From: a virus
Virus genome (UHGV): UHGV-0333071
DNA length: 24,121 bases
Reading direction: 5' to 3' (one strand)
Part shown: positions 4,231 through 5,612 of the stretch, one piece after another
How the letters are laid out: each line of letters opens with the position of its first letter
How positions within the stretch are numbered: the stretch's first letter is position 1
Made by a program: the position numbers and the translations under genes
Notes under the pieces: model-generated
What the model was told of the DNA's origin: nothing
Database searches by the model: none
Seen by the model: the letters and a program-made list of their open reading frames with translations, nothing else

Positions 4231-4490
4231 ACTTCGATCTCAAGTTTGGGTGAGTAAATCTCGTTAACCTTCTCGACGATCTGCATTTCGCAACCCGGAT
4301 AATCTTCCATCAACTTGTTGAGCGACTCTTTACACTCGGCATCAACAATGCGGCCCAGATACGTCACCATAGGGGCAACCTTATTGGTCATGGTCATTTC
4401 GTTAAGCAGGTTGTTAAACGCGGTTTTATTCGGCTCAAAGCTCAGATTTACGCCCGCCACGGTCATGGCGATTTTTTTCGGTTTACTCAT
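4221..4490 (-). CDS. Tail assembly chaperone (gpE / lambda gpG analogue)
   Basis: 89-aa ORF directly upstream of tape measure, ending in the slippery heptamer A_AAA_AAC (plus coordinates 4224-4230), the conserved chaperone position in long-tailed phages. Confidence 0.7.
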   Translation of the reverse strand: MSKPKKIAMTVAGVNLSFEPNKTAFNNLLNEMTMTNKVAPMVTYLGRIVDAECKESLNKLMEDYPGCEMQIVEKVNEIYSPKLEIEVKN

Positions 4491-4783
4491 TGTGCTAATT
4501 CCTTACGTTGTCGAATGATGCCCACCAGGGAGTTATGTCGGGCGGCGCAGTCGGTATACATCTGCCGGTAGGCTGTCAGCGCCGCGTCAAAGTCATTTCC
4601 GGTCGGTCCGGCCAGACGTGGCAGCGTGACCGGGCAAAGTGTCAGCTGGTTTTCCTGATAATTTTCGTTCGGCTTGATCTGCACTTTCGTTGAACAACCG
4701 GACGTAATTATCAGAAGCGCAAACGTTGCTAAAAACCGGCTTAATGGTTTCCGTGCGGATAACCCGTTCCGTGTGAATTTCAT
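4487..4783 (-). CDS. o-spanin (Rz1-like outer-membrane lipoprotein)
   Basis: 98 aa with signal peptide plus lipobox (..FALLIITSG|CSTK..); the gene starts inside the i-spanin gene in another frame. Confidence 0.7.
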   Translation of the reverse strand: MKFTRNGLSARKPLSRFLATFALLIITSGCSTKVQIKPNENYQENQLTLCPVTLPRLAGPTGNDFDAALTAYRQMYTDCAARHNSLVGIIRQRKELAQ

Positions 4784-4976
4784 TGGCCCTCAGCTCCGCG
4801 AGTTTTGCTTCCAGCGCTTCACCAGACTGCTGCGTCACCTCAACAACAATCTGGCGCGTTTGTTCTGCCGCTTCACTGGCAGCGAGTTTCAGCTTTGCAT
4901 CGTGCCAGTCATGCGCCTGCCAGCCCGCTGACATTGCAGCGACCAGAATCAGCAAAAGACCCAGCAAATTGCGCAT
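4593..4976 (-). CDS. i-spanin (Rz-like)
   Basis: 127 aa with N-terminal transmembrane helix (MRNLLGLLLILVAAMSAGW) followed by a charged, coiled-coil-like periplasmic domain; lies directly downstream of the endolysin with ATGA overlap. Confidence 0.7.
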   Translation of the reverse strand: MRNLLGLLLILVAAMSAGWQAHDWHDAKLKLAASEAAEQTRQIVVEVTQQSGEALEAKLAELRANEIHTERVIRTETIKPVFSNVCASDNYVRLFNESADQAERKLSGKPADTLPGHAATSGRTDRK

Positions 4977-5314
4977 CAGCGAACCCCGTTATGCTCAAGA
5001 CTGAAATGGTTCCCGTCCGGCTTACTGAAACGGCCACCCCACGATCCGCCGATAGATTCCCAGTATTCGCCCAGTGGGCGATATGCGGCGCTGTCGGTCT
5101 GGTATTCGCCGTTAATAAACAGGTTAAAATCCACCGCCAGGCGCTGGGTATGCAGGCTGTTAGTAATGCCGCTCCCTTTTTTTGCGTTAAGCGCGGCCTG
5201 TTCCGGCGTGCGGTACGCTTCGCCAAACGTCAGGCGATAACCCTTTTCTTCGGCAAAATGAATCAGGTTGGCGATCATCACCGTGAAAAGTTGCTGTTTT
5301 TCACTCAGTTTCAT
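4976..5314 (-). CDS. Endolysin, peptidase M15-type (L-Ala-D-Glu endopeptidase-like)
   Basis: 112 aa containing zinc-peptidase-like motifs (..SLHTQRLAVDFNLF.. and ..GGSWGGRFSKPDGNHFSL..), flanked by holin and spanins. Confidence 0.7.
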   Translation of the reverse strand: MKLSEKQQLFTVMIANLIHFAEEKGYRLTFGEAYRTPEQAALNAKKGSGITNSLHTQRLAVDFNLFINGEYQTDSAAYRPLGEYWESIGGSWGGRFSKPDGNHFSLEHNGVR

Positions 5315-5612
5315 TGCGCTTGCTCCCCCATCGCTTGATATACATGTCCAGGCAGCGCTTTAACCCCGCCTCAATAAACGCACTTCCCAGAATGCCCAGG
5401 GCGCAGGCCAGCCCAATGACGACCAGTTCCGGCATATCGGGGAATTTCAGCAGAGGGATTGCGGCCAGCGGTGCGACCGCAGATCCCAGAATCATCCGCC
5501 CGACCAGAAGACGGGTTGTGATTCGCTCATTGCTGACCATCAGTTGCCCCAGACCGATCACGGCCCCGATAAGCAACAGTTTTTCAAGCAGTGACGTTTC
5601 TCCGTTCATCAT
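5301..5612 (-). CDS. Holin (three predicted transmembrane segments, class I-like)
   Basis: 103 aa with three hydrophobic stretches and a highly charged C-terminus (KRCLDMYIKRWGSKRNETE); immediately upstream of the endolysin, overlapping it by 14 nt. Begins with two Met codons (MMNGE). Confidence 0.6.
   Translation of the reverse strand: MMNGETSLLEKLLLIGAVIGLGQLMVSNERITTRLLVGRMILGSAVAPLAAIPLLKFPDMPELVVIGLACALGILGSAFIEAGLKRCLDMYIKRWGSKRNETE

Follow-up and report, generated by a model that had tools for sequence, protein, structure and literature searches.

The four genes that are flanked by those for the tail tube and the tail assembly chaperone very probably (probability about 0.93) constitute a canonical lysis cassette, encoding a holin, an endolysin, and a two-component spanin, which occupies the ancestral slot of an HP1-type member of the Peduoviridae. 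This reading is carried by profile matches for all four proteins, by the compact organization of the region, by the conservation of the same arrangement in related loci, and by the equal synonymous divergence of the cassette and its flanks. In the following, "the window" denotes the entire stretch of 24,121 nucleotides that was analyzed.

Organization of the lysis region

The lysis genes and the surrounding tail genes are all encoded on the minus strand. The following features were assigned:

6076..7218 (-), tail sheath gene (PF10758 DUF2586, E=3e-131; phrog_907 'tail sheath', E=3e-161)
5617..6072 (-), tail tube gene, HP1 Orf24 family (PF10772 Phage_HP1_Orf24, E=2e-52; phrog_1182)
5301..5612 (-), holin, 103 aa (PF04550, E=9e-21; phrog_175 'holin', E=3e-34)
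4976..5314 (-), endolysin, 112 aa (PF13539 Peptidase_M15_4, E=5e-10; phrog_1768 'endolysin')
4593..4976 (-), i-spanin, 127 aa (phrog_1152 'Rz-like spanin', E=6e-38; N-terminal TMD)
4487..4783 (-), o-spanin, 98 aa (phrog_2425, E=1e-28; phrog_456 'Rz-like spanin', E=5e-5)
4221..4490 (-), tail assembly chaperone (PF10963 Phage_TAC_10, E=8e-30)
4224..4230 (-), slippery heptamer A_AAA_AAC, read from the sequence, predicted -1 frameshift site
4033..4224 (-), -1 frame extension of the chaperone, DUF6890 (ORF 4218..4033; PF21830, E=5e-22; phrog_7050)
1917..4031 (-), tape measure protein (PF10145; phrog_28)

The bounds of the cassette, 4487-5612, extend exactly from the stop codon of the o-spanin gene to the start codon of the holin gene. 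The original prediction had named a holin, an M15 endolysin, an i-spanin, and an o-spanin between the tail tube and the tail chaperone; all four identities were borne out by the Pfam and PHROG profile searches, and the two flanks were confirmed via PF10772 and PF10963. TM helices, a peptidase motif, and a lipobox, the three features on which the assignment as lysis proteins had been made to depend, were all found to be present. An NCBIfam scan with all lysis proteins did not match any family.

The genes are densely packed. A gap of only 4 nt separates the stop codon of the tube gene from the ATG of the holin gene, the holin and endolysin genes overlap by 14 nt, and the stop codon of the endolysin gene shares the sequence TGATG with the i-spanin start codon (one nucleotide overlap). 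The o-spanin gene begins within the i-spanin gene, in the +1 frame; the two have 191 nt in common, the former continues for another 106 nt beyond the latter, and the o-spanin stop codon overlaps the chaperone start codon in the form of ATGA. A scan of positions 3900-7400 yielded no promoter-like sites above the shuffled expectation and no terminator-like sites on the coding strand inside the cassette. Because the cassette has no intergenic space and no promoter or terminator of its own, the lysis proteins would be made together with the tail proteins. The four lysis genes are kept in dozens of related loci, far above chance. No Pfam family was matched by six other ORFs of the interval, five of which are on the opposite strand and one in an alternative frame of the minus strand, and neither Rfam families nor tRNAs were found in the whole window. 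The remaining genes of the window encode baseplate and completion proteins, an adaptor, the small terminase, the capsid, the scaffold, the large terminase, the portal, a replication gpA-like protein, a methyltransferase, Cox, and a repressor.

Identity of the phage

The window is a prophage from an enterobacterial genome; it is of the Irrigatiovirus (SI7) type within the Peduoviridae and belongs to the HP1-like lineage. The region 4000-7300 is 97.4% identical at the nucleotide level to the Salmonella phages SI7, SW3, and SW5 (Peduoviridae, Irrigatiovirus), and prophages in 18 complete E. coli genomes match it at 95.5% identity. SI7 (NC_049460) is an isolated phage, and its holin and endolysin proteins are 100% identical to those of the window; the spanins of SI7, SW3, and SW5 are 92-94% identical. 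The gene order in the RefSeq record of SI7, i.e., tail sheath, tail protein, holin, endolysin, Rz-like spanin, putative chaperone, and tape measure, is identical to that of the window, whereas the o-spanin and the predicted frameshift product of the chaperone are unannotated in that record. The window differs from SI7 in the accessory gene between the portal and the replication genes.

The cassette is therefore already known, along with its position and components, from the annotation of a nearly identical reference phage. Lysis genes are not analyzed in the SI7 paper, and no published experiments on this cassette were found. As a discovery the cassette matters little, and its practical value lies in annotation: the o-spanin is missing from the SI7 record and is annotated with a truncated start in the Yersinia phage vB_YenM_324, and the predicted DUF6890 frameshift product is unannotated.

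More distant relatives were also found to carry the same four-gene cassette in the same slot, namely the Cronobacter phage ESSI-2 (Seongnamvirus) and vB_YenM_324 (Tresduoquattuorvirus). The latter is annotated with a holin, an endolysin, an Rz-like spanin, an O-spanin, and a tail assembly chaperone, and the annotated start of its o-spanin omits the signal peptide. The endolysins of these two phages are 81-87% identical to that of the window, compared with about 40% for the holins, 38-55% for the spanins, and 48-51% for the tube proteins.

Conservation of the lysis slot

The slot of the window corresponds to that of HP1, in which the order is orf23 (sheath), orf24 (tube), hol, lys, orf25 (Rz-like), orf26 (chaperone), and orf27 (tape measure). 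The position of the HP1 lysis genes has reportedly been in print since the HP1 genome paper. The tube protein of the window is 52% identical to that encoded by orf24, the chaperone 37% to that of orf26, and the tape measure protein 31% to that of orf27. The agreement with the HP1-type order comprises adaptor, terminator, completion protein, sheath, tube, lysis genes, chaperone, and tape measure. The location of the lysis genes in HP1 is also stated in a 2020 study of HP1 lysis (PMC7312051).

The survey of this slot covered 88 loci, i.e., 80 IMG/VR loci that were found with a tube-protein profile and 8 reference phages. About 50 of them contain exactly a gpY-type holin, an M15 peptidase, an i-spanin, an o-spanin, the chaperone, and the tape measure gene. 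In every surveyed locus with enough downstream sequence, the insert between tube and chaperone has a length of at least 1.1 kb, with the exception of locus L050, which has a gap of 285 nt and no lysis genes. The order sheath, tube, lysis genes, chaperone, tape measure is also present in ESSI-2, vB_YenM_324, K139, phiO18P, phi3, and F108; in some of these phages the slot additionally contains a methyltransferase gene or a small gene for a DksA-like zinc finger. The arrangement is common to at least eight genera of the Peduoviridae and to nearly all of the 88 loci.

The occupants of the slot are not uniform. Its endolysins are GH24 lysozymes in HP1, K139, phi3, and F108, a P2 K-like enzyme in phiO18P, and a CHAP-domain protein or DUF5675 proteins in further lineages. 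The holins belong to PF04550, PF16080 (HP1 type), or PF05106 (lambda S type). By these sequence comparisons, the tube-chaperone junction appears as an old and conserved lysis slot of the HP1-like lineage with occasional module replacement. It can be described as a site that has held at least five endolysin and three holin families, and it neatly illustrates how modules are replaced at one fixed locus.

Inheritance of the cassette

The combination of genes had been taken to indicate a mosaic late region, and a recent event of this kind, in which a foreign lysis module was newly inserted into a P2-type tail operon, would account for several observations. The holin is similar to P2 gpY, while the tube and the chaperone on either side of the cassette resemble those of HP1, none of the lysis proteins (holin, endolysin, and spanins) is detectably similar to its HP1 counterpart, and the enzyme families found in the slot differ between lineages. 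These observations indicate that modules were exchanged at some point in the past. However, a recent insertion is very unlikely. The same four-gene cassette is present at the same site in lineages with tube proteins that are only 48-57% identical, synonymous (four-fold degenerate) sites are equally saturated in the cassette and in its flanks, the GC content is uniform across positions 4000-7500, and the lysis genes are translationally coupled to both neighbors. The shared site, the saturated four-fold sites, the flat GC content, and the coupling together argue that any exchange was ancient and that the layout is the norm of the lineage. No close relative (tail genes more than 90% identical) in which the tube gene abuts the chaperone gene and the lysis genes are located elsewhere was found among the close loci L010-L020. 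The mosaic interpretation thus gave way to a gene order that is standard for the HP1 type, with uniform GC content and equal synonymous divergence.

The individual lysis genes differ in their degree of protein conservation. The holin and the spanins diverge in step with the tail genes, whereas the endolysin is 81-88% identical at the amino acid level in distant lineages that have a tube identity of 48-57%. Recent horizontal transfer was considered as the cause of this high conservation, which contrasts with about 55% for the tube, and was ruled out, because the four-fold degenerate sites of the endolysin gene are only 34-55% identical and thus as diverged as those of the flanking genes. Purifying selection is therefore the simpler reading. 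From these sequence data we conclude that, among the HP1-like lineages of enterobacteria, the cassette and the tail genes have been passed on together.

Holin and tandem start codons

The holin has three hydrophobic segments according to its hydropathy profile (residues ~7-27, 34-58, and 57-84) and a charged, basic C-terminus (KRCLDMYIKRWGSKRNETE). The predicted topology is that of a class I holin with three TMDs. The match to PF04550 (Phage_holin_3_2) has a score of 74.5 bits, compared with a Pfam gathering cutoff of 25. The protein is homologous to P2 gpY (38% identity, E=1e-17), whereas no similarity to HP1 Hol was detected.

The holin ORF begins with ATG ATG, and thus the protein begins with MMNGE. 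An AAAGG Shine-Dalgarno motif precedes the two ATGs at distances of 8 nt and 11 nt, respectively. The original prediction had raised a possible dual-start holin/antiholin arrangement; in such a case, initiation at Met1 and Met2 would result in products with opposing functions, as in the case of lambda S107/S105. Two adjacent ATGs do open the frame, the AAAGG motif could serve either of them, and Met1 of P2 gpY aligns with Met2 of the window holin. Known dual-start antiholins owe their function to an additional positive charge; that this extra charge makes the antiholin is reportedly the view of Blasi and Young (1996), whom PMC7312051 cites. In the window holin, however, there is no residue, and hence no Lys or Arg, between the two starts, and the products would differ by a single Met. 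Moreover, MM was found at the N-terminus of only 5 of 51 sequences, all of them at least 99% identical to the window holin, and all other homologs have Pro, Gln, or Thr at position 2 (MP, MQ, MT). The RNA fold around the start (MFE -19.9 kcal/mol, z=-1.2) was not significantly more stable than that of shuffled sequences. A dual-start holin/antiholin pair is highly improbable on these grounds, and this part of the original prediction was not upheld. No antiholin was identified, and a LysA-like antiholin gene is absent.

A further possibility concerns the SI7 clade alone, in which a recent change of codon 2 from Pro, Gln, or Thr to Met might have generated the tandem ATG-ATG, and the tandem might tune the timing of the holin independently of charge. 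We regard this as a long shot. If it were true, the two products would differ by one N-terminal Met and hence in their N-terminal processing or in the membrane insertion of TMD1, and the tandem would represent a timing control in a phage without a LysA-type antiholin.

Endolysin

The endolysin matched PF13539 with a score of 40.2 bits, compared with a gathering cutoff of 25, in agreement with the earlier proposal of an M15 metallopeptidase rather than an enzyme of the P2 K type. Residues H55, D62, D100, and H103 are invariant in 29 endolysin homologs. They form the motif H-x6-D...D-x2-H, a zinc-ligand pattern with the catalytic Asp three positions before the last His, which is the pattern of M15 enzymes such as that of T5. 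The hydropathy analysis did not reveal any hydrophobic segment, and the endolysin would therefore need a hole-forming holin. By profile and motif, the protein is a cytoplasmic zinc peptidase of the M15/LAS group, probably with L-alanyl-D-glutamate endopeptidase activity. A sequence search of the PDB with the endolysin returned chance matches only.

The endolysin family is large, with 3,481 proteins at E<1e-5, and homologs are present in 321 phage records from many unrelated phage groups, including lysis cassettes of unrelated podoviruses and siphoviruses. In the Proteus phage Brookers the homolog adjoins a holin gene and a lysis protein gene, and homologs in Pseudomonas phages are annotated as endolysins. 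It is extremely unlikely that the peptidase is instead a virion-borne, tail-associated wall hydrolase that acts at infection, which would explain its position among the tail genes: the gene is indeed surrounded by tail genes, tail proteins with M15/LAS domains are known from some phages, and the phrog_1768 alignment covers an internal part of a 1577-position profile, but the gene is located directly between the holin gene and the spanin pair and overlaps both, its product is a stand-alone domain of 112 aa, its homologs occur in the lysis cassettes of unrelated phages (e.g., Brookers) and are annotated as endolysins in the Pseudomonas phages, classic GH24 endolysins occupy the same slot in sister lineages, and the HP1 enzyme from this slot lyses cells experimentally (PMC7312051).

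Spanins

The i-spanin has an N-terminal TMD formed by hydrophobic residues 1-22, followed by a predicted periplasmic helical domain, in keeping with a type II inner-membrane protein, and is 40% identical to the spanin of ESSI-2. The o-spanin has a basic n-region, a hydrophobic core, and a signal peptide ending in ...ITSG directly before the Cys. The lipobox T-S-G-C30 comprises residues 27-30, and a Ser is present at position +2. The consensus for o-spanins is [LVI][ASTVI][GAS]C (PMC6139136); positions -2, -1, and the Cys of the window protein fit, while position -3 is Thr instead of Leu, Val, or Ile. A lipobox census revealed that Thr is the most common residue at position -3 in this o-spanin family, and that 50 of 51 loci contain [T/M/L/I]-x-[G/A]-C. 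SI7, ESSI-2, and YenM_324 retain both the Cys and the mature domain, which has two further Cys. The o-spanin also had a weak match to PF23793 LysC (E=0.025). It is predicted to be the precursor of an outer-membrane lipoprotein in an overlapped architecture like that of P2 lysB/lysC (PMC6139136). BLASTP searches with the window spanins detected no similarity to P2 LysB/LysC or to HP1 orf25.

Predicted chaperone frameshift

The heptamer A_AAA_AAC is located directly before the stop codon of the chaperone gene, and 74 of 80 related loci have this heptamer in the same location, in each case followed by a -1 frame of 60-64 codons. In the window, the -1 extension (DUF6890) has a length of 63 codons and is frame-continuous from the slippery site, and the chaperone and its extension are located just upstream of the tape measure gene. 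The site itself, the extension, and the position led to the prediction that A_AAA_AAC is a programmed -1 frameshift site.

Proposed mechanism of lysis

Late transcription through the tail operon would yield all four lysis proteins, and the timing of lysis would be set post-translationally by the holin. The three-TMD, gpY-type holin is expected to build up in the inner membrane, to trigger, and to form large holes. The soluble 112-aa M15 peptidase could then exit via these holes and cut the stem peptide of the peptidoglycan, most likely at the L-Ala-D-Glu bond. Finally, a complex of the i-spanin, anchored in the inner membrane, and the o-spanin, an outer-membrane lipoprotein, would fuse or disrupt the outer membrane. 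The order of these steps and the bond cleaved are deduced from what is established about lysis by lambda and P2 and about M15 endolysins of the T5, Ply500, and LysB4 types. Over long times, different lineages have placed non-homologous holins and endolysins in the ancestral slot.

Comparison with known systems

The window enzyme is smaller (112 aa) than the M15 L-alanyl-D-glutamate peptidases of T5 (EndoT5), RB49, the Listeria phage enzyme Ply500, and the Bacillus phage enzyme LysB4, and structural alignments with these endolysins yielded identities of 16-21%. The predicted frameshift has the same layout as the chaperone frameshifts of P2 (E/E+E') and lambda (G/GT): P2 gpE and HP1 orf26 are analogs of the window chaperone, and P2 E' is the analog of the -1 extension.

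The cassette of HP1 (hol, lys, orf25) has been characterized by experiment and comprises a pinholin and a SAR endolysin (PMC7312051). In contrast to the location of the genes, the proteins are not homologous to those of the window, the HP1 holin belonging to PF16080 and the endolysin being a GH24 lysozyme with a SAR domain. The combination of a gpY-type holin and a soluble M15 peptidase in the window implies that lysis would follow the canonical large-hole pathway, and not the pinholin/SAR pathway of HP1.

In P2, the lysis genes Y-K-lysA-lysB-lysC are located between X and R/S, and the sheath, the tube, and E/E' are part of the separate F operon. The synteny comparison thus confirmed the contrast with P2 that had been pointed out in the original prediction. 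In addition, P2 K is unrelated to the window endolysin, and the P2 antiholin LysA has no counterpart in the window. The two phages nevertheless agree in that both cassettes form part of a late operon for morphogenesis, and in that lysB/lysC have the same overlapped +1-frame architecture as the spanin genes of the window. The position of the cassette is unusual relative to P2 only and represents the normal layout for the HP1-like branch.

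A putative frameshift extension of the tail chaperone

The open reading frame of the tail chaperone (family PF10963) ends in the window with GTA AAA AAC TGA. A slippery heptamer lies directly in front of the stop codon, and the -1 frame is open beyond it:

4224-4230, minus strand: slippery heptamer A_AAA_AAC, directly 5' of the tail chaperone stop codon
4033-4224, minus strand: -1 frame extension, DUF6890, open for 63 codons past the heptamer

Judged from the sequence, this arrangement looks like a programmed -1 frameshift of the P2 E/E+E' type. Because the heptamer and an extension of 60-64 codons were retained in 74 of the 80 related loci, including loci with chaperones that are only 33-45% identical, DUF6890 is probably the segment that a frameshift adds to chaperones of family PF10963. 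In the record of the Salmonella phage SI7, DUF6890 is listed as a separate hypothetical protein.

Conservation and replacement of the lysis genes

The M15 endolysin (4976-5314, minus strand) shared 81-88% protein identity with its counterparts in seven surveyed loci (L004, L005, L030, L041, L063, L067 and L086), whereas all neighbouring proteins were much less conserved in the same comparison, with identities of about 40% for the holin, about 47% for the tape measure protein and about 55% for the tube. The synonymous sites of the endolysin gene were as saturated as those of the neighbouring genes. High protein conservation combined with equally saturated synonymous sites indicates that this small endolysin is under purifying selection of unusual strength.

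In three loci, L021, L036 (about 5678-6100) and L038 (6005-6484), the endolysin position was filled by a DUF5675 (PF18925, E=7e-19) or CHAP-domain protein. Because DUF5675 is found at the endolysin gene position in some HP1-type loci, it may represent an endolysin family that is so far uncharacterised. A single surveyed HP1-type locus, L050 (IMGVR_UViG_3300048856_000141, 5453-5738), lacked lysis genes between the tube and chaperone genes, which were separated by 285 nt. Possible explanations are that L050 arose by deletion, that it is a defective prophage, or that its lysis genes are located elsewhere in the phage.

The annotation of the o-spanin gene is truncated in one reference record and missing from another:

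vB_YenM_324 (Yersinia phage; locus L005), 4242-4583: annotated 'O-spanin' CDS, with a start 3' of the signal peptide and lipobox
SI7, 9849-10145: intact o-spanin ORF without a CDS in the record

The longer ORF of vB_YenM_324 includes both the signal peptide and the lipobox (...NMSGC), and the SI7 ORF is 92% identical to the o-spanin of the window.

A low-GC island with a candidate defence gene

An island at about 15000-17500 has a GC content of 31-40%, compared with about 55% in the rest of the window, and contains a long ORF:

15179-17467, minus strand: 762-aa ORF

This ORF is flanked by portal/regulator genes on one side and a gpA-like replication gene on the other. Its product has a match (E=3e-76) to PDC-S06, a candidate defence family in PADLOC, and contains ABC/RecF-like ATPase motifs. 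In SI7, other genes are present at this site, and in P2 the portal-proximal accessory region, where the window has the 762-aa ORF, is occupied by old and tin.
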